Notes: a model not told the origin generated them from the letters alone. Shown: positions 2,290-50,668, numbered from the stretch's first letter. The stretch is DNA of 64,000 bases from an uncultured Planctomycetaceae bacterium (GCA_964616985.1 CAZTVF010000005.1:6771-70770); one strand, 5' to 3'. Numbers and translations are program-made.

Positions 2290-2650
2290 GCCGACGGGTG
2301 CCATGAGGTGCCATGGGTGCCATGCTTTTAGCCCCGCAGGGGCAAAAGCATGTTTACAGCGCACCCAATCACGGATGACGTCGGGGTCTGGAACGTGTGA
2401 CGACTGTCCCCCCGTTGGCGCGAAGAAAAGAGAAACCGGGGTCATCGTCTCATCCGCTCCGCCTCGCAAGTTCTGCCCACACGTCGCTATCGCTCGGCCT
2501 TTCTGCGCTGTAGACCCGGCATTTGCGGACGGCTGGGAGTGCGGCGCCGGTTGTATAAACATGCTTTTGCCCCTGCGGGGCTAAAAGCATGGCACCCGGA
2601 ATAGGAGCATGGCACCCGGAGCAAGAGCATGGCACCCGGAGCGCAGGCGT
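2290..2650. repeat. MITE-like element: ~40-bp terminal inverted repeats with subterminal short tandem repeats around a ~200-bp core
   Basis: The left arm GGGTGCCATGCTTTTAGCCCCGCAGGGGCAAAAGCATGTTTA (about 2318-2358) is the near-perfect reverse complement of the right arm (about 2556-2597). Outside the arms are 3x GGTGCCATG on the left and 3x GCATGGCACCCGGA on the right. Each arm is itself a 14-bp-stem hairpin followed by a T-run facing the core. Confidence 0.5.
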
Positions 2651-2805: not shown

Positions 2806-3861
2806 ATGCGCACCGACGTCAAGATTGGAATAACGACCGGCCTGGTCGTCTGCGTAGGCATACTGCTGTATTTCGTCTTCACCAACAACAAGGACACCCG
2901 GCCCGTCAGGAATCGCGATGGCGACGTGGGCCTGCGGTCCGACACGCCGCCGCTGGCCACGCCGCGAGGCGAGGTTCCTCGTTCGCCCCTGGCCGTGGCG
3001 TCGCCCACGCCCCAGCCCGTGCCCGCGCCGACGCCCGCCATCACCGTCAGCGAAGGCAACTCCAGCGTGGTCTCCACCGTCCGCCCCGACCGGCCTTCCG
3101 AGAGCACCGTCAACGTCACGCTGCACGACGCCAACAAGGCCGGCGATAGCATCGTGATCGACCCGCCGACGGCCGAGCCCAATAAGGATGTGCGAACGGG
3201 CGAGGCGGTGCTGCTGCCGGTGACTCCCGGCATCCGCGAGGGCGTCCGCAGCGGCGAGCCCAACGCGACCGCCGTCGCCCCCCGCACCACGGCCAATGAA
3301 GAGCCCGGGTCCGTGATGGTTGGCGCGGCCGGCGAAAAGTATTACATCGTCAAACGCGGCGACAACGGCCTGTGGGCCGTGGCCGAGAAGGTCTATGGCG
3401 ACGGCAAGAAGTGGGAACTGATCGCGGCGGTCAACCCGCCCGAGGTGTCGCGCAACCCGCTGCGTCCCGGCCAGAAGATCAGCCTGCCGGCCAATGCAGG
3501 CGTTGCCGAGGCCCCGCCGGTTCGCCCGCTGGCTTCGGCGGCCAGCACCTCCAAGCCTGCCGACGGCGAGAAGTACGTCGTCAAGTCGGGCGACACGGGT
3601 CTGGAAGCGATCGCCCGGAAAGTTTATAACGGCGATGGCACGCTTTGGCCTGCCATCGCAAAGGCCAACCCGAACGTGGACTCCGCCCGCCTTCGCGTCG
3701 GCCAGGAAATTATCATTCCTTCATTGAACGATGCAAAGCGGATGCTGGGGGTCGCGGCGACGGCGACATCCCGGCCGACCACCGAGCGGGCTCGAAGCAC
3801 GCCGACGGCCAGGCCCACGGAAAAACCCAAGGCCACCGACAGCGGCAAGAAGTTCGACTGA
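2806..3861 (+). CDS. membrane-anchored protein with two LysM peptidoglycan-binding domains
   Basis: It has an N-terminal TM helix (IGITTGLVVCVGILLYFVF), a Pro/Thr-rich linker, and two LysM repeats (YYIVKRGDNGLWAVAEKVYGDGKKWELIAAVNP and YVVKSGDTGLEAIARKVYNGDGTLWPAIAKANP). The RBS GAAGGAG lies 8 nt upstream. Confidence 0.7.
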   Translation: MRTDVKIGITTGLVVCVGILLYFVFTNNKDTRPVRNRDGDVGLRSDTPPLATPRGEVPRSPLAVASPTPQPVPAPTPAITVSEGNSSVVSTVRPDRPSESTVNVTLHDANKAGDSIVIDPPTAEPNKDVRTGEAVLLPVTPGIREGVRSGEPNATAVAPRTTANEEPGSVMVGAAGEKYYIVKRGDNGLWAVAEKVYGDGKKWELIAAVNPPEVSRNPLRPGQKISLPANAGVAEAPPVRPLASAASTSKPADGEKYVVKSGDTGLEAIARKVYNGDGTLWPAIAKANPNVDSARLRVGQEIIIPSLNDAKRMLGVAATATSRPTTERARSTPTARPTEKPKATDSGKKFD

Positions 3862-4038: not shown

Positions 4039-5754
4039 ATGCTTCGGTACACTCTGATTTCACTGGCCACGGCGTTCGTCTTCCTGGGCATCAACTGCAC
4101 CCCCAAGCCGACCCCTCAGCAGCAACTGGAACAACAGGTCCGCGCGACCCACATGTCCGGCACGGTGGCGGAGTTCGCCATGTTCGAAGGCGCCGCCGAC
4201 CTGCCGGTGCAGGGGTATGGCGTGGTGGTGGGGCTGGGGACCAACGGGTCCCGCGAGGTGCCCGCGCACGTCAAGCCGTATCTTGTTGAATACCTTGGCA
4301 AGCTCGGTTTCGGCTCGGCCTCAAAGAACCTGCTCCATATGACCCCCAGCAAGGTGCTCAGCTCAACCGACACCGCGGTGGTGCTGATCGGCGGGGCCAT
4401 TCCGTTCGGCGCCCCGCCGGGCACGAAGTTCGACCTGTTCATCGAGGCGATGCCCAACACCCAGACCCGCAGCCTCTGGGGCGGCTGCCTGCTGCAATCG
4501 GAACTCCGCTTCGCCGATCGCGGCATGGCCATCCCCGGCGGCCCCACCCGTCCGCTGGCGGCGGGGCAGGGCGACGTATTCTGCAATCCCTTCGTGGACC
4601 CCAACGACGAGCGCGAGATGGTGAAGTGGCGTTCCGGCCGCGTCCTCGGCGGCGGCACGGTGGGAGTCCCCACGCCGATTCTGCTGGTCCTTCGCCAGCC
4701 GGACTACGCCCGGGCCGACCTGCTCCAGCGGCGGATCAACGAGGTCTTCGGCGCCAACGCCGTCGCCGTCGCCAAGGCCACCGGGCGCCGCGTCATCGAG
4801 ATCACCGTTCCCAAGGAATGGCACAAGGATTACCAGCATTTCCTGCAGCTGGTGCTGCATATCCCGCTGGATGCCTCGAGCAACTACGAGGTTCGGGCCC
4901 GCGATCTGATCCGCGCCATGGAAGCCCCCGACGCCCCTTGCCAGGACATCGCGATGATCCTCGAAGCCACCGGCCGGCAGATCGTGCCGATCCTCAAGAG
5001 CCACTACACCGACAGCAACCCCAACGTCGCCTACTTCTGCTCCCGCACGGGCGTGAGGCTGCGGGATGAGACGGCCGGGACGGTCGTCGTCCGCTTCGCC
5101 AAGACCCCTTCGCCGCTGCAACTGGAGGCGATCGGCGAATTGGGGAGGCGCAACGAGATCCTCGAAGCTCAGATGGTGCTGCATGACCTGCTGGACGATG
5201 ACAATATGAGCACCCGGATCGCCGCGTACGATGCTCTGGTCCGCCGCGGCGACCGGCGCCGTATCACCCGCCTGGACGTGGACAAGCAGTTCAAGCTCGA
5301 CATTGTCGAATGCCAGAAGACGCCTCTGATCTACGCCACGCAGACCGATCAGCCCCGCCTGGTCGTGTTCGGCAAGGCGATGCCTGTCAAACGCCCGATG
5401 TTCTTCAACACCTCCGACGACCTGGTCACCGTCCGCTGCAACGAGGGCGAGGAGAAGCTGACGGTCTTCCGCAAGACGTTCGACAACCGCTTCAGCGACA
5501 GCTACGAGGTGAACCCCGACGTGCAGTCGCTGGTGCTCAAGTTGGGGTCCCGCCCGATGATGGGCGACGACGGGTCGATCAAGGGCCTGGGGCTGAGCTA
5601 CTGCCAGCTGGTGGCGGTGCTGCACGGAATGTGTCAAAAGGGCGATATTCCCGCCAAATTCAACTTGCAAGAACTGGCCCCCTCGCCCACAATCTACGAC
5701 AGCAACGCACCGGTGATACCGCAGGCGGCACCGCCGGCGGAATCGCCGAAGTGA
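4039..5754 (+). CDS. flagellar P-ring protein FlgI homolog, enlarged to 571 aa, with a signal peptide
   Basis: The N-terminal region (VQGYGVVVGLGTNGS...TAVVLIGGAIPFGAPPGTKFDLFIEAMPNTQTRSLWGGCLLQSEL) follows the FlgI pattern (GYGLVVGL-G-GD ... PPF..G..IDV.V.S.G.A.SL.GG.LL). The C-terminus (LSYCQLVAVLHGMCQKGDIPAKF) resembles the FlgI C-terminal helix. This comes from manual pattern comparison only. Confidence 0.45.
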   Translation: MLRYTLISLATAFVFLGINCTPKPTPQQQLEQQVRATHMSGTVAEFAMFEGAADLPVQGYGVVVGLGTNGSREVPAHVKPYLVEYLGKLGFGSASKNLLHMTPSKVLSSTDTAVVLIGGAIPFGAPPGTKFDLFIEAMPNTQTRSLWGGCLLQSELRFADRGMAIPGGPTRPLAAGQGDVFCNPFVDPNDEREMVKWRSGRVLGGGTVGVPTPILLVLRQPDYARADLLQRRINEVFGANAVAVAKATGRRVIEITVPKEWHKDYQHFLQLVLHIPLDASSNYEVRARDLIRAMEAPDAPCQDIAMILEATGRQIVPILKSHYTDSNPNVAYFCSRTGVRLRDETAGTVVVRFAKTPSPLQLEAIGELGRRNEILEAQMVLHDLLDDDNMSTRIAAYDALVRRGDRRRITRLDVDKQFKLDIVECQKTPLIYATQTDQPRLVVFGKAMPVKRPMFFNTSDDLVTVRCNEGEEKLTVFRKTFDNRFSDSYEVNPDVQSLVLKLGSRPMMGDDGSIKGLGLSYCQLVAVLHGMCQKGDIPAKFNLQELAPSPTIYDSNAPVIPQAAPPAESPK

Positions 5755-5799: not shown

Positions 5800-8700
5800 A
5801 TGAAACTAAGAAAGCTGATCCTTTCGGGCTTCAAGAGTTTCGCGGACCGGACTGAATTCGACTTCGACGACGGCATCAGTTGCGTTGTCGGCCCCAACGG
5901 CTGCGGCAAGAGCAACGTGGTCGATGCCTTCAAGTGGGTCCTCGGGGAACAGTCGGCCAAGAGCCTCCGCGGTACGGAGATGATGGACGTCATCTTCAAC
6001 GGCTCGTCGGCGCGCAAGCCCGCGGGCATGGCCGAGGTCACGCTGGTTTTCGACAACAGCGACGGGCTGCTCCGCATCCCCAACTCCGGCGAGACCACGC
6101 CCCAGACGGCCATCTCCGTCACCCGCCGCCTATACCGCAGCGGGCAGAGCGAGTACCTCATCAACAAGCTGCCCAGCCGCCTGCGCGACATCCGCGAGAT
6201 GTTCATGGACACCGGCGTGGGCGTCGACGCCTACAGCGTCATCGAGCAGGGCAAGGTCGAGGTCTTCCTCCAGTCCTCGCAGGACGACCGCCGCGCCATC
6301 TTCGACGAGGCCGCCGGCATCAGCAAGTACAAGGCCCGCAAGAAGGAGGCCCTCCGCAAGCTCGAACGCGTCGAGCAGAACCTCCTCCGCGTCACCGACA
6401 TCCAGGCCGAGGTCGAGAAGCGCCTCCGCTCCATCAAGTACCAGGCCGGCAAGGCCCGCAACTACCAGGAATATAGCGAGCGCCTCAAGGACCTCCGCTC
6501 GCTGTTCTTCCAGGCGCAGTACCACACGCTGTCGGGCTCGCGCACGGAACTGCAGAAGAAGCTCGACGCCGCCACCGACAACCTCGGCCGCATCACGGCC
6601 ATGATCGAACAGCTGGAGACCGCCCGCCGCGGCGTGGAGGTCGAATCGGCGGACCTCGACGGCACGGCCCGCGAACTGCAGGGCCGCGTAGGCTCGGTCA
6701 CCGGCCAGATCTCCACCCGCAAGGAACGCGTCGAGATGCTGTCCTCGCGCGTGGGCGAGCTCGGCCAGCAGATCGTCGCCGCCGTCGCCCGCTGCGAGGA
6801 ACTCGAGGCCAAGATCGAGGCCTTCGACCAGGCGTTCAACGCCCGCCGCGAGGACCTCGTCCGCGTGGAGGTGCAGTCGACGGAGCTGGCGCAGAAGTGC
6901 GAAGCGGTCCGCATCGAGCACACGTCGAAGGAAGCGGACATCACCGAGCTGGCCGACCGGCTGGAAGATGAGAAGGCCGGCACGATCGACCTGCTCCGCC
7001 GCACCGCGCAGCTGCACAACGAAATCCAGTCTCACAGCATCCGCCGCGAGAATCTCGCCGGCCAGCAGACCCGCCTCAGCGGTCGGGCCGAGGAGATCGC
7101 CACGGCCCTGACGGCGCTGTTCGAGCAGCGGGCCGCCGTGGAGATCAAGGTGGCCGAAGTGCGCGAGGTGCTCACCGCCTCGCAGGCCCGCCTCGAAGAG
7201 ATCAAGCAGGCGGGCAAGGATCTCGACGCCACCCGCCAGGCCGCCCAGACCGAACTGGGCAACCATCGCGAGCAGCGCAGCGCCCTGCAGAGCCGCATCC
7301 AGGCCCTGCGCGAGATGCAGGCCCGCCGCGAAGGCGTCGCCGCCGGCGTCCGCAACGTGCTGGAGGCCGCCCAGAAGAACGAACTGCCCGCCATCCGCGG
7401 CATGCTCGGCGACTTCCTCCAGTCCGACGTGCAGCACGCACAGATCGTCGAGGCCGCCCTGGCCGGGGCCGACCAGTCGCTGCTGGCCGCCCGCTACGAC
7501 GACCTCGCCGCCGCCAGCGAAAAGATCACCAAGATCCTCGGCGGCAAGGGCGCCGTCGAAGTCCTCTGCCTCGACCGCCTCGAGACATTCACCCAGGACT
7601 TCGAGCTCGCCTCCTGTCCGCAGATCAACGGCCGCGTCATGGACTGGGTCACCTTCGACGGCGACCTCGCCCCGCTGATGTGGCGGCTGCTGGGCAAGAC
7701 CTACGCGGTGGCCACCATGGCCGACGCCGCGGCGGCCGCTGCCGTCGCGCCGCGCGGCTCGCGATTCGTCACCGCCGGCGGTGAAGTGCTTGAGGCCGAC
7801 GGCCGCGTGCGCCTCGGCGCCGCCAACCGCGGGGCCGGCGTCATCGCCCGCCGCAGCGAGATGGTCGAGCTGGAGGCCCGCGTGGCCCAACTCGATCAGA
7901 AAATCGAGGAGCTCCAGGCCCGCTGCCAGACCATGCGGTCGGAGCGCGAGCACCTGGAGGAACTGCAGCAGAAGATTCGCACGGCCATCTACGAGGCCAA
8001 CACCATCCGCGTCGAGTGCGTCAGCCGCCTGGGCGCCCTGAACGAGCAGGCCGGCAAGCTCGAGCGTGAAAAGCCCCTGGTGGCCGAGGACCTCAAGAAC
8101 CTCGCCCTGCAGGTGGAGCAGGCCGTCTCGCGCGAGCACCAGGCCCGCGAGAAGGCCGCCGAGCTGGAGGCCCTCAACGCCGAACGCCAGCAGGAGGTCG
8201 CCCGCCTGACCGAGGAGATCGCCGCCGCCCGCTCGCGGCAGGCCCAGCTGACCGCCCAGCTCACTGAGCACAAGGTGGCCCTGGCCCAGTCGCAGGAAAA
8301 GATCCTCTCGCTGAAGGAGGCGATCAACTCGCTCTCCCGCCAGCGCGAGCAGATGGCCAACGACATCACCTCCGGCCGCTCCGAGATCGAGCTCTCCCGC
8401 CATCGCCGCACCGAGGCCGAAGAAGGGATCAAGGCCGCCCAGGTCGAGTTGGAGCGCCTCTCGGCTGAGAAGGAGACCCTCGAGGGCGAGCTGCAGGACG
8501 TGGAAGAGACCCGCAAGGGCCTGTTCGAGAAGCTCGAGGAGATCCGCCGCCAGCTGACCGCCCAGCGAGGCGAGCACGACCAGGCCTCCAACAAGCTCAA
8601 CAAGAACCGCGTCGAGCTCAGCGAGGCCGATGTCCGCATCGAGAACCTCATCTCCCGAGCTTCGGACGAAATGCAGATGAACCTGCTGGAGCGGTTCGCC

Positions 8701-9423
8701 ACCTACCAGCACGACGAGGCCCGTGATTGGGCCGCCGTCGAGGCGGAGATCCACGACCTCAAGGGCAAGATCGAACGCCTGGGCAACGTCAACCTCGACG
8801 CCATCGCCGAGCAGGAAGAACTCACGCAGCGCCAGGAATTCCTCGGCGCGCAGCTGGAGGACGTGCGGACCTCGCAGAAGCAGCTGGCCGACCTGATCGA
8901 GAAGATCAACCAGGAAAGCCGCGACCTGTTCCTCAAGACCTTCGAGGCCGTCCGCGCGAACTTCCAGGAACTCTTCCGCAAGCTCTTCGGCGGCGGCAGG
9001 GCGGACATCTTCCTGATGACCCCCGAGGACGTGCTGGAAAGCGGCATCGAAGTCGTCGCCCGCCCGCCCGGCAAGGAAATGCGGAGCATCACGCTGCTGT
9101 CCGGCGGCGAGAAGACGATGACCGCGCTGGCGCTGCTGTTCAGCATCTTCCGTAGCCGCCCCAGCCCCTTCTGCATCCTGGACGAAGTGGATGCGGCGCT
9201 GGACGAGGCCAATAACCGCCGCTTCAACCTGCTGGTCAGCGAGTTCATCGGCACCAGCCAGTTCCTCGTCATCTCGCACGCCAAGCGCACGATGAGCATG
9301 GCCAGCGTGCTGTACGGCGTGACGATGCAGGAGCCCGGCGTCTCCCGCCGCATCAGCGTCAAGTTCGAGGACGTCGGCGAGAAGCTCGAGCACGACCTCA
9401 AGCCCGCAGCGGCGAAGAGTTGA
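5800..9423 (+). CDS. smc: chromosome segregation protein SMC
   Basis: 1207 aa. It has the Walker A GPNGCGKSN at the N-terminus, long coiled-coil arms, the C-terminal signature LSGGEKTMTALALLF, and Walker B ILDEVDAALD. Confidence 0.9.
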   Translation: MKLRKLILSGFKSFADRTEFDFDDGISCVVGPNGCGKSNVVDAFKWVLGEQSAKSLRGTEMMDVIFNGSSARKPAGMAEVTLVFDNSDGLLRIPNSGETTPQTAISVTRRLYRSGQSEYLINKLPSRLRDIREMFMDTGVGVDAYSVIEQGKVEVFLQSSQDDRRAIFDEAAGISKYKARKKEALRKLERVEQNLLRVTDIQAEVEKRLRSIKYQAGKARNYQEYSERLKDLRSLFFQAQYHTLSGSRTELQKKLDAATDNLGRITAMIEQLETARRGVEVESADLDGTARELQGRVGSVTGQISTRKERVEMLSSRVGELGQQIVAAVARCEELEAKIEAFDQAFNARREDLVRVEVQSTELAQKCEAVRIEHTSKEADITELADRLEDEKAGTIDLLRRTAQLHNEIQSHSIRRENLAGQQTRLSGRAEEIATALTALFEQRAAVEIKVAEVREVLTASQARLEEIKQAGKDLDATRQAAQTELGNHREQRSALQSRIQALREMQARREGVAAGVRNVLEAAQKNELPAIRGMLGDFLQSDVQHAQIVEAALAGADQSLLAARYDDLAAASEKITKILGGKGAVEVLCLDRLETFTQDFELASCPQINGRVMDWVTFDGDLAPLMWRLLGKTYAVATMADAAAAAAVAPRGSRFVTAGGEVLEADGRVRLGAANRGAGVIARRSEMVELEARVAQLDQKIEELQARCQTMRSEREHLEELQQKIRTAIYEANTIRVECVSRLGALNEQAGKLEREKPLVAEDLKNLALQVEQAVSREHQAREKAAELEALNAERQQEVARLTEEIAAARSRQAQLTAQLTEHKVALAQSQEKILSLKEAINSLSRQREQMANDITSGRSEIELSRHRRTEAEEGIKAAQVELERLSAEKETLEGELQDVEETRKGLFEKLEEIRRQLTAQRGEHDQASNKLNKNRVELSEADVRIENLISRASDEMQMNLLERFATYQHDEARDWAAVEAEIHDLKGKIERLGNVNLDAIAEQEELTQRQEFLGAQLEDVRTSQKQLADLIEKINQESRDLFLKTFEAVRANFQELFRKLFGGGRADIFLMTPEDVLESGIEVVARPPGKEMRSITLLSGGEKTMTALALLFSIFRSRPSPFCILDEVDAALDEANNRRFNLLVSEFIGTSQFLVISHAKRTMSMASVLYGVTMQEPGVSRRISVKFEDVGEKLEHDLKPAAAKS

Positions 9424-9495
9424 TCAGTTAATCAGTTAATCGGTTGATCGGTTGATCCGTGGATCAGTGGATCAGTTAATCAGTTGATCGGTGCA
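9424..9495 (+). repeat. array of nine tandem 8-bp iteron-like units (TCRGTKRA) directly after the smc stop
   Basis: The units read tcagttaa tcagttaa tcggttga tcggttga tccgtgga tcagtgga tcagttaa tcagttga tcggtgca with a strict 8-bp period. Confidence 0.6.
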
Positions 9496-9590
9496 TGGTG
9501 TATCCCAATCGATCGACAGTGATCCCCGATCTGGTCTATCCGACGATTTGGGTTTCCGCTCGCGATTTCGCGCACGGCGGCCCCTCCTGG

Positions 9591-9654
9591 GGTGGCGGCC
9601 TTCCCAGGCCGCCGCCAGATTGATGAGACGCAATGGTGGGCAAGCCTGCCCACC
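9591..9654. repeat. two REP-like hairpins: family 1 (GGTGGCGGCCTTCCCAGGCCGCCGCC) and family 2 (GGTGGGCAAGCCTGCCCACC)
   Basis: Both are perfect short palindromic stems (GGCGGCCT/AGGCCGCC and GGTGGGCA/TGCCCACC). Copies of the same sequences recur elsewhere in the window. Confidence 0.55.
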
Positions 9655-9670
9655 CTACGGTGGCTGATGC

Positions 9671-9720
9671 AACGATTCACTGATTCACTGATTCACTGAT
9701 CAACCGATTCACTGATTCCC
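9671..9720 (-). repeat. second 8-bp unit array (TTCACTGA x4-6), the inverted complement of the 9424-9495 array
   Basis: The sequence gattcactgattcactgattcactgatcaaccgattcactgattc fits the reverse complement (tYMacYga) of the first array's unit. The two arrays bracket about 175 bp containing the REP hairpins. Confidence 0.5.
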
Positions 9721-9781
9721 CACCGCGCGGCGATTATCGCTTTGCCAAACCCACCGCTTCTGCCGTATATCTTGCATATCT

Positions 9782-11101
9782 ATGCACAACGCAAACCCCA
9801 AGGTCGCGCTGGTGTCGCTGGGCTGCCCCAAGAACCTCGTCGATAGCGAGAAGATGCTCGCTACGCTGGCCGAGGGCGGCTGCGTCGTGGGCGCGCCCAT
9901 GGAAGACGCCGACGTCATCGTGGTCAACACGTGCGGCTTCCTCTCCTCCGCGCGCGAGGAATCGCTGGGCGTGATCCGCGAGGCCCTGGGGCTCAAGGAG
10001 GGTGGCCGCACGCAACGCGTGGTGGTCGCCGGCTGCCTGGTCAATCGCGACGCCAAGAAGCTCTTCAACATCGTCCCTGGCATCGACGCCATCGTCGGCG
10101 TGAACGACCGCGACGCAATCCTCGCCGCCGTGCGGGGGCAGCGGCGCGTGACCAAGGCCCATGCCTATGACGGCGGCATCCTCAGCGACGCCGGCCGCTT
10201 CCGCCTCACCCCTCGCCACACCGCGTATCTCCGCATCGCCGAGGGCTGTTCGCAGCGGTGCACCTTCTGCACCATCCCGGCCATCCGCGGGCCCTTCCGC
10301 TCCAAGCCCGTCGAGCAGATCGTGCAGGAGGCCCGCGAACTGATCGCCGACGGCGCGGTGGAACTCAACCTCATCGCCCAGGACACTACCAGCTTCGGCC
10401 GCGATCTCGAACAGGACCAGACGCTCGCCGGCCTGCTCCGCCGGCTGGACGCGCTGGACGGCGTGCAGTGGATCCGCCTGATGTACGCCTACCCGCGCCG
10501 CTTCACCGACGGCCTGATCGAGGCCATGGCCGAGTGCGAGCACGTATTGCCGTACGTCGATATTCCGCTGCAGCACATCTCGGACAGTGTCCTGCGCCGC
10601 ATGGGCCGCGGCGTCGGCCGCTCGGCCACCGATAAGCTCCTGGCGAAGATGCGCGACCGCATCAAGGGCCTGGTGATCCGCACGGCCTTCATCGTGGGCT
10701 TCCCGGGCGAGACGGAGGCGAACTTCCAGGAACTGCTGCAGTTCGTCAAAGATTTCCGCTTCGACGCCTTGGGCGTTTTCGAGTTCTCGCCCGAGGAAGG
10801 CGCACCCGCCGCCCGCCTGCCTCACGCGGTGGCGGCCGAGGTGAAAACCCATCGCGCCCGCCAGATCATGCTCGCCCAGCGCAAGATCGCGTTTGCCGCA
10901 AACCGCCACAAGATCGGCCGCTCGCTGCAGGTGCTTGTCGACGGCCCCGGCGGGGCGGGGCCGACGACCGGCCGCTATTATGGGCAGGCGCCGGATGTCG
11001 ACAGCGTTTGCCTGTTGACGAAACGCGTCCGGCAGGGACAATTGGTGTCCGCGAAGGTCGCGGGAACCGACGAGTACGACCTGGTAGTGGACCCGATGTA
11101 A
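9782..11101 (+). CDS. rimO: ribosomal protein S12 methylthiotransferase RimO (MiaB-family radical SAM)
   Basis: It has the KVALVSLGCPKNLVDSE N-terminal MTTase domain, the radical SAM CSQRCTFCTIP motif (CxxxCxxC), and a TRAM-like C-terminus. Confidence 0.8.
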   Translation: MHNANPKVALVSLGCPKNLVDSEKMLATLAEGGCVVGAPMEDADVIVVNTCGFLSSAREESLGVIREALGLKEGGRTQRVVVAGCLVNRDAKKLFNIVPGIDAIVGVNDRDAILAAVRGQRRVTKAHAYDGGILSDAGRFRLTPRHTAYLRIAEGCSQRCTFCTIPAIRGPFRSKPVEQIVQEARELIADGAVELNLIAQDTTSFGRDLEQDQTLAGLLRRLDALDGVQWIRLMYAYPRRFTDGLIEAMAECEHVLPYVDIPLQHISDSVLRRMGRGVGRSATDKLLAKMRDRIKGLVIRTAFIVGFPGETEANFQELLQFVKDFRFDALGVFEFSPEEGAPAARLPHAVAAEVKTHRARQIMLAQRKIAFAANRHKIGRSLQVLVDGPGGAGPTTGRYYGQAPDVDSVCLLTKRVRQGQLVSAKVAGTDEYDLVVDPM

Positions 11102-15904: not shown

Positions 15905-16120
15905 TGTCATGGGTCCCGTAGGGACCGCTGAAGCTAGCCCAGCACTTTAGTGCTGGGTCAGGGGGCCGAGCGCACTTGAGTCCCGTAGGGACGATTGAAA
16001 CGTTTCAGTCGTCCCTGCGGGACTCAGAATGCGGGGAATACCTGCGTTTCCCCAGCACTGAAGTGCTGGGCTATTCTCAGCCGTCCCTACGGGACGCAGT
16101 AGCGGAAAAGCCATCCCACG
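15905..16120. repeat. cluster of short perfect palindromes in the convergent intergenic spacer
   Basis: GTCCCGTAGGGAC, CGTCCCTGCGGGACT/AGTCCCGTAGGGACG and CGTCCCTACGGGACG occur together with CCCAGCACTTTAGTGCTGGG and CCCAGCACTGAAGTGCTGGG and TGAAACGTTTCA. They are arranged as two inverted super-units. Confidence 0.5.
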
Positions 16121-16209
16121 CGCCCCGTCGGGTTCTGCGTGACGCACGCGACCTGGCCCCGAGGAGGCGGGATGCATAGACCGCCCGGATGGATCGCTCA
16201 GGTGGGATG

Positions 16210-20211: not shown

Positions 20212-20233
20212 CGGCGGCCTTCCCAGGCCGCCA
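20212..20233. repeat. REP family 1 copy (GGCGGCCTTCCCAGGCCGCCACC)
   Basis: It matches the hairpin repeat seen at 9591, 32058, 43796, 43838 and 50598. Confidence 0.5.
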
Positions 20234-20672
20234 CCACAGCCGTCTGCAGTTGGCGGCCCAGGAAGGTCGCCACCCCGAATCACAACCGTCGTCGCGAGCG
20301 GTCTGCTGAGTCGCGAAATGGGCATCGCTCGGCTGCTCAGGGCCTCTGGAGCCTTCATCACCGGTTTTACGGCCGGTAAGCCCAAGAGGGCAAAAAATCT
20401 TTAACGGATTGCCGGACAAGAAGATACATCGAAAACTGCGACTTTTCGTCTGGGTTTGGCCGTGCAATTCCAACGATTTGAGGTGATGATCCCTAATCAC
20501 AAAATCCTTAGCTTGCCGATTTATAAGCTAAGACGAGCCCGTTGGGCTCGCCGGCGATCCGTTCAACGCCGGGGAAAACTGGACCGGTGCGGAATCGCAG
20601 TATGAGGCCGCTTCCGGCGTACACTTAGGCTAAGTCCCCTTAGTTTGGACAGGACGCGCTGGAGAAAGGCAA

Positions 20673-32023: not shown

Positions 32024-32083
32024 TGGCGGCCTTGCGGGGCCGCCGCCAGAGCCCTGAGGGTGGCGGCCTTCGCAGGCCGCCGC
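32024..32083. repeat. two adjacent REP family 1 copies (variant GGCGGCCTTGCGGGGCCGCCGCC, then GGCGGCCTTCGCAGGCCGCCGCC)
   Basis: This is the sequence immediately after the Fe-S paralog 2 stop codon. Confidence 0.5.
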
Positions 32084-38946: not shown

Positions 38947-39034
38947 GAGATGGCTCCGTAGAGGTGATGCCCCTATTCTCTAGCCACCCCTGGACGAAAT
39001 GCAAGGAAATAGATTACGCGTGGGGCCAGAAATC

Positions 39035-39134
39035 GGAAGCACGAAGCCCAAAAACTCGAAGCACGAAGCCCAAAAACTCGAAGCACGAAGCACGAAATCC
39101 GAAACAAGCCCGAATACGGGTTCGGATTTCGTGC
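39035..39134 (-). terminator. candidate terminator region for the upstream minus-strand gene: tandem 22-bp repeats plus a 14-bp-stem hairpin
   Basis: GAAGCACGAAGCCCAAAAACTC occurs twice, then GCACGAAATCCGAA-(18-nt loop containing the CCCGAATACGGG sub-hairpin)-TTCGGATTTCGTGC. On the minus strand the hairpin is followed by GAGTTTTTGGG. Confidence 0.35.
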
Positions 39135-39151
39135 TTCGGATTTCGGATTTC

Positions 39152-43795: not shown

Positions 43796-43864
43796 GGGTG
43801 GCGGCCTTCCCAGGCCGTCGCCTGCAGCGCCCGTCTTGGGTGGCGGCCTTCCCAGGCCGCCGCC
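43796..43864. repeat. two REP family 1 copies (GGGTGGCGGCCTTCCCAGGCCG(T/C)CGCC) 15 bp apart
   Basis: They lie in the divergent intergenic spacer between the nucleoside hydrolase and aroA. Confidence 0.55.
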
Positions 43865-45580: not shown

Positions 45581-47092
45581 ATGATCAAGAATACATTTCT
45601 GCGGAGCTACGCACTGTCGCTGGTGCTGATCGGGGCCATCGTGGTCGGGTCGCTCGTGGGCCTCGTGTTTCCGACCGCCACGACAAACTTCCCCATCCAG
45701 TGGCACGACACGTCCTTCAACACGTGGCTGCTCACCAGCGTCATCAAGCCGTTTGGCGACGTCTTCCTCAACGCATTGTTCACCGTGGTCGTGCCGCTGG
45801 TGTTCTTCTCGATCTCCTCGGCTGTCGCGGGCATGGTGAGCACGAAGCGGCTGTTTCGCATCCTGGGCTGGATGATGGTCGTCTTCATCATCACCGGCGT
45901 GATCGCATCGCTGCTGATGGTGGCCGGGGTGAAGCTGTTCCCGCCGGCCGAGGGCGTGCACCTGACGGTGCAGGCGGGGGCGGCCGTGCAGAAGATGAGC
46001 ACATCCGACCAGATCGTCAGCGCCGTCAGCACGTCGGACTTTGTGAACCTGCTGTCGAAGAGAAACATGCTCGCCCTGATCGTCTTCGCGGTGCTGGTGG
46101 GGCTGGCCGCATCGGCGGCGGGCGAGAAGGGAAGGCCCTTCGCGAACTTCCTCGCCTCCGGCAGCGAGGTGTTCATGAAGGTGATCTCGCTGATCATGTA
46201 CTACGCGCCGCTGGGGCTGGCGGCGTACTTCGCGTACCTGGTGGGGGTGTTCGGGCCGGACCTGCTGACGGACTACGCGCGGGCCATGGCGCTATACTAC
46301 CCGCTGTGCATCGCGTACTTCTTCATCGCCTTCACGCTGTATTCCGGCCTGGCCGGCGGGGGCTTGGGCGTGCGGAGGTTCTGGGGCAACATCGTGCCGG
46401 CATCGCTGACGGCGATGGGCACCGGCAGCAGTTTCGCCACGATCCCGGTGAGCCTTCAGGCGGCCGACCGCATCGGCACGCCCCGCGAGGTGAGCGAGGT
46501 GGTGATCCCCATCGGCGCGACGATCCACATGGACGGCTCGTGCCTGGCGGCGGTGCTGAAGATCGCCTTCCTCTTCGGCATCTACCAGATGCCTTTTCAG
46601 GGCTTCGAGACGATCGCCATCGCGGTGGGCATCGCGATCCTCAGCGGCACGGTGATGAGCGGCATCCCGCAGGGCGGTTTCACGGGCGAGATCCTGATCG
46701 TGGCGATGTACGGCTTCCCGCCCGAGGCGCTGCCGATCATCTCGATGATCGGCACGCTGGTGGATCCGCCGGCCACGATGGTCAACGCCGTCGGCGACAA
46801 CGTCGCCAGCATGCTTGTCGCCCGCCTCATGGGCGGCAAGGGGTGGATGCAGGCCGGCAATGCGCCCCAGGCCGATGCGAACGTGTGCTGCGTCCGGGCC
46901 GCCGCGAATGACGAAGAAGCAGCGAACAGCAGAACCGCAGAACAAGGAATGTCGAATACTGAAGTGAACGGCAACGCGCCTCAGGCCGATGCGAACGTGT
47001 GCTGCGTCCGGGCCGTCGCGAATGGCGAAGAAGCAGCGAACAGCAGAACCGCAGAACAAGGAATGTCGAATGCTGAAGTGAAAGACAAATAG
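45581..47092 (+). CDS. dicarboxylate/amino acid:cation symporter (DAACS; SstT/GltP-like) with a repeat-derived C-terminal tail
   Basis: It has a polytopic profile and DAACS motifs (...SSFATIPVSL..., ...GATIHMDGSCL...). The start is MIKNTF by codon counting. The last ~80 aa are encoded by two tandem copies of a dispersed element. Confidence 0.65.
   Translation: MIKNTFLRSYALSLVLIGAIVVGSLVGLVFPTATTNFPIQWHDTSFNTWLLTSVIKPFGDVFLNALFTVVVPLVFFSISSAVAGMVSTKRLFRILGWMMVVFIITGVIASLLMVAGVKLFPPAEGVHLTVQAGAAVQKMSTSDQIVSAVSTSDFVNLLSKRNMLALIVFAVLVGLAASAAGEKGRPFANFLASGSEVFMKVISLIMYYAPLGLAAYFAYLVGVFGPDLLTDYARAMALYYPLCIAYFFIAFTLYSGLAGGGLGVRRFWGNIVPASLTAMGTGSSFATIPVSLQAADRIGTPREVSEVVIPIGATIHMDGSCLAAVLKIAFLFGIYQMPFQGFETIAIAVGIAILSGTVMSGIPQGGFTGEILIVAMYGFPPEALPIISMIGTLVDPPATMVNAVGDNVASMLVARLMGGKGWMQAGNAPQADANVCCVRAAANDEEAANSRTAEQGMSNTEVNGNAPQADANVCCVRAVANGEEAANSRTAEQGMSNAEVKDK
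46850..47090 (+). repeat. tandem duplication (about 114 bp x2) of a dispersed element, in-frame with the transporter 3' end
   Basis: Units starting GCGCC(C/T)CAGGCCGATGCGAACGTGTGCTGCGTCCGGGCC... are about 95% identical. Each ends with the ~60-bp core also found at 15745-15805. Confidence 0.6.
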
Positions 47093-47252
47093 ATTGAAGA
47101 ACCAAACTTGTCTGGGGGTGCGAAGGCGTCACCGGGTCAATTCTCGTCTGGCGGCAAATGGAACCCGGCGGCCGGGGCGGCATATCCATCGTCCTTTATG
47201 TCCCGTCTGTGCCGCCCGAAACTCGTTTGGGAGTGCGAGCCGCATTCCAAGC

Positions 47253-47370
47253 GAGCATGCCGGCGCGGGTACGCTTCGGTATGGCACCGGCGAGCATGCC
47301 GGCGCGAATACGCTTCGGCATGGCACCGGCGAGCATATCCGGCGCGAGTACGCTTCGGCATGGCACCCAT
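47253..47370. repeat. three tandem copies of a 37-bp hairpin unit (GGCACCGGCGAGCATGCCGGCGCGRRTACGCTTCGGCAT)
   Basis: This is a direct triplication with a few substitutions. Each unit contains the inverted repeat CATGCCG...CGGCATG. A single copy lies at 23455-23500. Confidence 0.6.
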
Positions 47371-50597: not shown

Positions 50598-50668
50598 GGT
50601 GACGGCCTTCCCAGGCCGCCGCCGGGCGGTCTGTTGGTGGCAGCCTGGGAAGGCCGCCTCCCTGGCCG
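50598..50668. repeat. REP family 1 copy plus an inverted degenerate copy
   Basis: GGTGACGGCCTTCCCAGGCCGCCGCC ... GCAGCCTGGGAAGGCCGCC. Confidence 0.5.

Follow-up and report, generated by a model that had tools for sequence, protein, structure and literature searches.

Two arrays of octamers lie in inverted orientation between smc and rimO in the 64-kb window (the whole stretch of 64,000 nt analyzed here, from an uncultured Planctomycetaceae bacterium), and we consider it fairly likely that they form a foldback element without an ORF, of a class that is widespread. In this class, the arms are inverted arrays of 7–8-nt repeats with the G-rich arm 5′, and arrays of the same class bracket PF05635/TIGR02436 genes; in the smc-rimO member, the loop has been enlarged by REP-type hairpins. 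By analogy with the intervening sequences (IVSs) of 23S rRNA, the element is probably a selfish or neutral IVS-like hairpin that lies in an intercistronic spacer, where it would offer a putative site for RNase III cleavage or 3′-end processing. This reading replaces a partition or loading story linked to smc with a testable RNase III-type hairpin between two cistrons. In addition, the oriented association between PF05635 (IVP) genes and repeat arrays joins two puzzles, as, to our knowledge, short tandem heptamer and octamer repeats in bacterial spacers have no accepted function and PF05635 proteins have no known role, apart from the distantly related Avd protein of diversity-generating retroelements.

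Results

The Octamer Arrays Form a Large Inverted Repeat

The genes and repeats of the region are:

5800-9423, plus strand: smc (PF02463 plus hinge), whose last codon and stop fall within the first repeat unit
9416-9495, plus strand: left (5′) arm, G-rich, made of a degenerate unit, AGAGTTGA, and nine phased TCRGTKRA octamers
9496-9667, no strand assigned: core or loop of the foldback, 172 nt that separate the left and right arrays; the first ~85 nt are unique, with decayed octamer-like pieces, and the remainder consists of REP-type hairpins
9538-9548 and 9667-9677, plus strand: 11-nt direct repeat (ATCCGACGATT and ATGCAACGATT), the second copy lying where the right arm meets the loop
9591-9616, plus strand: REP-type hairpin GGTGGCGGCCTTCCCAGGCCGCCGCC, from a family of nine window copies, mostly doublets
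9635-9660, plus strand: second GC-rich hairpin, GGTGGGCAAGCCTGCCCACC then CTAC (the minus strand reads GTAGGGTGGGCA...), with its other copy at 16209
9668-9718, minus strand: right (3′) arm, with five TCRGTKRA units at 9676-9715, a degenerate unit at 9668-9675, and a partial unit that extends to 9718; C-rich on the plus strand
9782-11101, plus strand: gene for a rimO-type radical-SAM methylthiotransferase (UPF0004, Radical_SAM, and TRAM), with its start codon 64 nt past the right arm

In the left array (9424-9495), the units follow one another in the order TCAGTTAA (twice), TCGGTTGA (twice), TCCGTGGA, TCAGTGGA, TCAGTTAA, TCAGTTGA, and TCGGTGCA. The units of both arrays are imperfect, and neighboring units are often identical pairs. 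TRF reported the left array at 9418-9489 (period 8, 9.0 copies, 85% matches) and the right array at 9674-9718 (period 8, 5.6 copies). A preliminary description of this DNA had counted nine phased octamers on the left and inverted copies on the right, and we confirmed both, with nine units on the left and five to six on the right. It had also placed the start of the left array at the first base past the smc stop codon; however, the array begins one unit earlier and overlaps the stop, since the degenerate unit at 9416-9423 includes the last smc codon and the stop codon (AGT TGA, with TGA at 9421-9423). The arrays are intergenic tandem direct repeats within the 5–11-nt unit range and are longer than expected by chance. 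All 14 matches in the 64 kb to a pattern of two TCRGTKRA units (up to two mismatches) fall in the smc-rimO spacer, compared to 0.79 expected from dinucleotide-preserving shuffles, and the window contains a single TCRGTKRA element.

The arrangement of the arrays as a large inverted repeat, also proposed previously, holds at the level of sequence and of predicted structure. Arms of 54 nt (9430-9483 and 9664-9717) are 80% complementary, with 180 nt between them, and in the RNA fold of 9410-9730 the arrays pair as one long stem around smaller hairpins (−154.2 kcal/mol, z = −8.15). Folded as DNA, the spacer element gave z = −7.15. GC skew is +0.23 to +0.26 in the left arm and −0.27 to −0.38 in the right arm, placing the G-rich arm 5′ and the C-rich arm 3′.

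The central region contains two REP-family hairpins, as had been described, and both recur in the window: GGCGGCCTTCCCAGGCCGCC (9594-9613) is present in nine copies, with 0.24 expected, and GGTGGGCAAGCCTGCCCACC (9635-9654) in two, with 0.07 expected. Like other REP sequences, these are short GC-rich palindromes found in several intergenic copies. Elsewhere in the window, GGCGGCCTTCCCAGGCCGCC occurs as REPIN-like doublets, ~40 nt apart and both direct and inverted, at 20213-20271, 32025-32081, 43800-43861, and 50601-50658. Apart from its REP parts, the core matches none of the loci fetched for this study. The pair of 11-nt direct repeats may be a faint mark of a ~129-nt REP-bearing insertion into a loop that was once short. 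At 172 nt, the loop exceeds the 20–60 nt typical of the class, which counts against the class reading.

There is no ORF in the core (9496-9667). Profile searches of six-frame translations found no PF05635 gene or IVP remnant in the core or in the whole 64-kb window, and the cores of all three foldbacks of the window (2296-2642, 9416-9718, and 39029-39151) lack an IVP remnant. Scanning the smc-rimO spacer for promoters and terminators identified neither a sigma-70-like promoter nor an intrinsic terminator. Searches with Rfam detected no family in the spacer at E values up to 1, with the sole sub-threshold match attributable to chance, and no rRNA in the 64-kb window.

Foldbacks with Other Units Occur in the Window and in Other Genomes

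Two further foldbacks are present in the window:

2296-2642, in the spacer after a gene ending at 2268: GGGTGCCAT three times, inverted arms, then ATGGCACCC three times at 20-nt spacing
39029-39151, directly downstream of a minus-strand gene: GAAGCAC and 22-mer repeats that pair with TTCGGAT heptamers

The arms of the first (2315-2356 and 2556-2597) match perfectly as an inverted repeat over 42 nt and are 199 nt apart. The second folds with an RNA z of −6.5 and, unlike most such elements, has the C-rich arm first. Outside the window, GATTTCG (4.6 copies) and AATCCGA (4.6 copies) surround a 91-nt core in a divergent dus-rimO spacer (locus L121), and GATTTCG and AATCCGA units are also found downstream of bacA (L122). 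The GATTTCG/AATCCGA units of these foldbacks are related to the unit of the foldback at 39029-39151.

A scan for three consecutive TCRGTKRA units across 185,579 species genomes gave at least 120 matches; among the matches listed, the arrays come from many phyla, and some MAGs have several loci per genome. Seven Planctomycetota loci were read by eye, and other statements on orientation derive from database gene calls. Assigning the orientation of flanking genes from the longest ORF was dropped as unreliable in high-GC DNA; in one example, it chose the antisense ORF over rimO. Planctomycetota loci (L047, L048 twice, L113, L073, L013, and L055) share a layout in which a stop codon is followed by [RATCRGTK]n, a 20–60-nt GC-rich loop, and the inverted array, and loci with this layout have fold z values of −5 to −10.

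The order of the arms is strongly biased. Among the matches listed, with overlapping self-matches set aside, TCRGTKRA precedes its complement in 24 cases and follows it in ~4. The arrangement reads alike whichever strand is taken, so the bias genuinely belongs to the elements. A census of all loci that was independent of the repeat unit identified 51 foldbacks, with the G-rich arm first in 44 (44 versus 7). Stop codons partly account for this order: reading inward, all three frames are closed in 36 of 88 arms and none in 28, while the corresponding numbers reading outward are 18 and 41 of 88.

Neighboring Genes and the smc Connection

The smc and rimO genes are co-directional, with BacA encoded further downstream. 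Just upstream of smc, 4039-5754 encodes a 571-aa protein of unusual architecture, with an FlgI (flagellar P-ring) domain and HEAT repeats. The best named RimO homologs are from Phycisphaerae/Planctomycetota MAGs. According to database gene calls, three relatives with ~70% RimO identity have a divergent dus upstream of rimO, not smc; all three retain pgsA and pgpA downstream of rimO, with bacA next in L122. In the closest relative (P0002, 85% RimO identity), the gene calls place a 314-aa ORF without Pfam matches upstream of rimO. Because dus or the Pfam-less ORF occupies this position in relatives, the smc-rimO junction is lineage-specific, and the spacers of the relatives contain other repeat units or none. 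Thus, comparing the smc-rimO spacer with its counterparts in relatives, where dus replaces smc upstream of rimO, revealed no conserved location for the arrays. In one relative, a TGTCGAA array (3.9 copies) lies over the rimO 3′ end (L124, 7308-7334; also L125 and L126); since its copy number is identical in contigs of three different samples, this array is not hypervariable at that scale.

The preliminary description had interpreted the octamers as iteron-like sites for a DNA-binding protein and had speculated about a partition or condensin-loading site linked to smc. Such sites in double-stranded DNA might be bound by an RHH-type centromere-binding protein (omega, ParG, or ParR) or serve in SMC/ParB loading, with a role in chromosome organization or rimO regulation. 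The element does directly follow smc, and the sites of omega (pSM19035), ParG (TP228), and MetJ are likewise contiguous 7–8-bp repeats, both direct and inverted. More broadly, plasmid iterons and centromere-like arrays (omega heptads, parC, parH, and MetJ boxes) resemble the element in consisting of contiguous 7–11-bp direct and inverted repeats. However, the spacer element has no cognate gene nearby, neither its locus nor its sequence is conserved, and it is located inside a probably transcribed spacer where it overlaps a stop codon. We found no parS-like site in the 64 kb at up to three mismatches and no gene for a Par or RHH-type protein among the neighbors (SMC, RimO, FlgI-HEAT, and BacA). 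Moreover, the same arrays adjoin unrelated genes in many phyla, and similar architectures, including analogous elements in the same window, use quite different units. The differing units in the window and in relatives indicate that arm pairing is conserved, rather than a binding sequence. Their overlap with stop codons, and their position against start codons, place the arrays in spacers that are probably transcribed. With smc-rimO adjacency unconserved and both parS and an adjacent partition or RHH gene absent, we regard binding sites of the iteron or centromere type as very improbable, and nothing ties the octamer arrays to smc or to chromosome organization.

The Octamer Is One of Many Array Units, and Whole Elements Are Copied

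By our own arithmetic, the pattern used in the genome scan carries ~39 bits, corresponding to ~2 chance matches expected in random sequence. However, in viral contigs, where the real octamer pattern matched 12 loci, three composition-matched permutations matched 9, 14, and 20. Octamer arrays of any unit are therefore far more common than random expectation, and the number of genome matches is uninformative about TCRGTKRA itself; as permuted patterns are equally common, the at least 120 matches are also no proof of one family by descent. These controls ruled out the idea, based on the genome matches, that the octamer is a special motif. Among 121 sequences, we counted 60 period-7 and 33 period-8 arrays unrelated to TCRGTKRA. 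In the Acidobacteriota genome AnMBR.bin219 (L012, L065, L076, and L119), spacers are mosaics of many 6–8-nt tandem arrays, with units that include CGATTA, TCATTGG, TGCGAACC, GGTGAATC, and CGGGAGA; these mosaics flank ordinary genes, such as those for an XerC-like protein, an RRM protein, and EF-G.

Two pairs of loci reveal that whole elements are duplicated within genomes. The elements L048a and L048b, separated by 3 kb in Phycisphaerales fen_1344, differ in their loops, yet their arms are nearly identical, down to the order of unit variants. In a Gemmatimonadaceae MAG, elements on different contigs (L007 and L042) have a ~75-nt core in common, as well as their outer arms and the inner arms nested in them, with a mean column identity of 85%. 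Identical adjacent units fit additional local slippage. No target-site duplication was recognizable at the Planctomycetota loci or at the L048 pair.

Inverted Arrays Bracket IVP Genes

At one Planctomycetota locus (L054, 5983-6721) and one Bacteroidota locus (L110, 2846-3451), inverted TCRGTKRA arrays ~410–420 nt apart surround a single ORF. The enclosed ORFs match PF05635 (23S rRNA-intervening sequence protein; E = 2e-39 and 3e-22, respectively) and TIGR02436 (four-helix-bundle protein), with weak matches to the diversity-generating retroelement (DGR) protein Avd, and were the only PF05635 genes in the loci fetched before metagenome sampling.

We sampled 80 metagenome loci with IVP genes (L182-L261), located through peptide patterns that are independent of the repeats. 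After identical loci were set aside, 72 remained, and in 59 of these the flank on each side spanned 150 nt or more. Inverted repeats between the 300-nt flanks were sought at E < 1e-3, with windows shifted by 800 nt as controls. A significant inverted repeat was present at 40 of the 59 IVP loci compared to 1 of 82 control windows. The arms overlap short-period tandem arrays in 39 of these 40, and the G-rich arm is first in 39 of 40 (median arm, 34 nt; distance from the protein match, 54 nt on the upstream and 34 nt on the downstream side). The units differ between cassettes and include GTCGTTG/CCAACGA, GGAGACC/GGTCTCC, GTGAGAC/CGTCTCA, GGTGAATA/ATTCACCA, and GTGATCAA/TGATCACT. In IVP cassettes, pairing and orientation are conserved, while sequence is not. 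A literature search of limited scope found no paper on a general association between IVP genes and inverted short-repeat arrays, which is no proof that the association is unpublished.

Several G-rich arm units resemble an extended Shine-Dalgarno sequence (GGTGATC and GGAG-containing units), and their C-rich partners resemble the 3′ tail of 16S rRNA (GATCACC and CCTCC); GGTGATC/GATCACC arms are found at 1418-1448 and 1890-1920 of L242. This likeness may be a coincidence arising from the G-richness of the arms.

Two of the sampled loci also contain ORF-less hairpins built from the same unit as the IVP cassette, ~0.25–1.25 kb downstream of it on the same contig. In L186, the cassette (1446-1940) and the hairpin (2183-2295) occupy successive intercistronic spacers, and the 5′ arm of the hairpin starts on the upstream stop codon, while its 3′ arm ends 10–20 nt before the next start codon. 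In L242, the cassette is at 1418-1920 and the hairpin at 3170-3274. The smc-rimO element has the long-stem inverted arms, the 7–8-nt tandem repeats, and the 5′ G-rich arm of the class; as it encloses no PF05635/TIGR02436 gene, it is filed with the ORF-less forms of L186 and L242. Since an IVP ORF or remnant is absent from the element and an IVP gene is absent from the 64 kb, its class membership is argued from the arms.

Could the arrays instead be plain microsatellites, produced in place by slippage, with the inversion arising from template switching that "corrects" quasi-palindromes, and with neither a function nor a relation to IVP genes? A slipped-strand microsatellite had been offered as the fallback reading, and it was partly right, in that the arrays do have the character of simple-sequence repeats. 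The imperfect units and adjacent identical pairs fit local duplication, array-bearing genomes hold many unrelated short-unit arrays (60 of period 7 and 33 of period 8 in the 121 sequences), and permuted octamers are as common in viral contigs as the real one. Short-unit satellites and long simple-sequence repeats of prokaryotes are also documented (PMC6749651; PMC4679880, citing Mrazek 2007). However, independent local origin predicts equal frequencies of the two arm orders, in contrast to the observed counts of 24 versus ~4, 44 versus 7, and, at IVP genes, 39 versus 1. Nor does it account for the copying of whole elements within genomes, which extends to cores without repeats and to the succession of unit variants, or for the tight tie to one gene family (40/59 versus 1/82). 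We therefore consider microsatellites without function or IVP relation unlikely as the whole explanation.

Discussion

The closest known systems to the foldback class are the 23S rRNA IVSs that carry an S23p/PF05635 ORF, as in Coxiella and Leptospira. In the Coxiella IVS, inverted repeats bordering the S23p ORF form a 28-bp stem, two or three tandem GACAGAT heptamers, their number varying between strains, lie upstream of the ORF, and RNase III excises the IVS, making its 5′ cut within the stem, where the first heptamer begins (Warrier et al., PMC4990558). The likeness lies in terminal inverted repeats that form a long stem and in the inverted 7–8-nt arrays, TCRGTKRA arrays included, that flank PF05635 genes located outside rRNA. 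The smc-rimO element differs in that it lies between two protein-coding genes rather than in an rRNA helix, lacks the ORF, and has longer arms (nine and six units) and a loop filled with REP hairpins.

We envision that the element is selfish or neutral DNA that spread by copying, with arms reshaped by replication slippage. Upon transcription of smc, the arms would form an imperfect dsRNA stem of ~50 bp. The repeat structure of the arms allows pairing in several registers even though the unit numbers, nine and six, are unequal. As suggested by the IVS precedent and the intercistronic position, the stem may be cut by RNase III or act as a 3′-end barrier or terminator, and cutting or blocking at the stem would uncouple the smc and rimO messages. 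The heptamer-armed foldback of L121 argues against a pure terminator role, as it sits in a divergent spacer, and selfish or neutral spread therefore fits better than a dedicated terminator function.

How do these elements relate to the short repeats described in other bacteria? TAACTGA heptamer repeats of unknown function abound in the intergenic DNA of Beggiatoaceae, Cyanobacteria, and Bacteroidetes, frequently running into the end of an ORF or lying directly against a start codon (MacGregor 2015, PMC4679880). Long simple-sequence repeats are known from prokaryotes, as noted there in a citation of Mrazek 2007, and Subirana and Messeguer (PMC6749651) surveyed prokaryotic satellites with short units. 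Together with the cyanobacterial STRR heptamers, the TAACTGA and simple-sequence repeats resemble our arrays as tandem intergenic units of 7–8 nt, often mixed with others, and reverse-complementing the window unit TCAGTTAA gives TTAACTGA, with TAACTGA inside it. However, the period of the spacer element is 8, not 7, and the published TAACTGA arrays are almost all direct, with only one inverted case in BOGUAY; that study does not connect them with IVP genes or hairpins (PMC4679880).

The loop hairpins relate the spacer element to REP, BIME, and REPIN sequences, two such hairpins being present. REP-type intergenic palindromes at gene 3′ ends and between cistrons have been proposed to stabilize mRNA and to function in termination, as outlined in PMC3733652. 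A REP is one palindrome of 20–40 nt headed by GTAG or CGTC, whereas the arms of the spacer element are octamer arrays with a sequence that varies between copies.

Correia elements of Neisseria, other MITEs, and Foldback transposons are likewise short non-coding elements with inverted ends that are co-transcribed with their neighbors. Correia elements are processed by RNase III, and the arms of eukaryotic Foldback elements are built of tandem short repeats. However, the target-site duplication, transposase, and conserved terminal sequence of MITEs were not seen in the repeat-armed elements. In the 64 kb, the smc-rimO element is present as one copy; within-genome copies occur in other genomes, and no duplication is recognizable. 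These comparisons bear on the possibility that the element acts at the level of DNA, with no role for RNA. Such action is consistent with the terminal position of the inverted arms and their fixed outside-to-inside orientation, with the near-identical copies dispersed in individual genomes, and with the side-by-side occurrence of ORF-less and ORF-bearing forms. Nonetheless, the only gene found inside these elements encodes a ~120-aa four-helix-bundle protein without a nuclease or recombinase domain, a target-site duplication is not recognizable, and arm units differ so widely between copies that no single transposase site is conserved. We judge purely DNA-level action to be quite unlikely, even somewhat more so than in-place slippage.

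A broader reading, which we put forward tentatively and consider possible at best, is that the octamer arrays are footprints of unrecognized selfish "foldback cassettes" that cross phyla. The autonomous form would consist of a PF05635 (IVS-protein/Avd-like) gene and inverted 7–8-nt arrays, the G-rich array always first, and ORF-less copies would be miniature derivatives. The system would also include the intergenic heptamer and octamer repeats (STRR and TAACTGA) known from cyanobacteria, Bacteroidota, Beggiatoaceae, and Planctomycetota, and the four-helix-bundle protein might bind the arms or help to propagate them.

Other Repeats of the Window

Several further repeats were recorded in the window. 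The ATGGCACC motif of the foldback at 2296-2642 recurs in an array of three 39-bp units at 47251-47367. Near this array, 46855-47082 is a 114-bp tandem duplication (95% identical) at an ORF end, with AGAACAGC-type octamers. At 15910-16098, inverted repeats form a cluster (15910-15957 with 16051-16098, and 15977-16026), and one of its arms is an Rfam match to Acido-Lenti-1 RNA (54.9 bits, 16051-16096), which suggests a repeated hairpin element, unlike a single sRNA gene.
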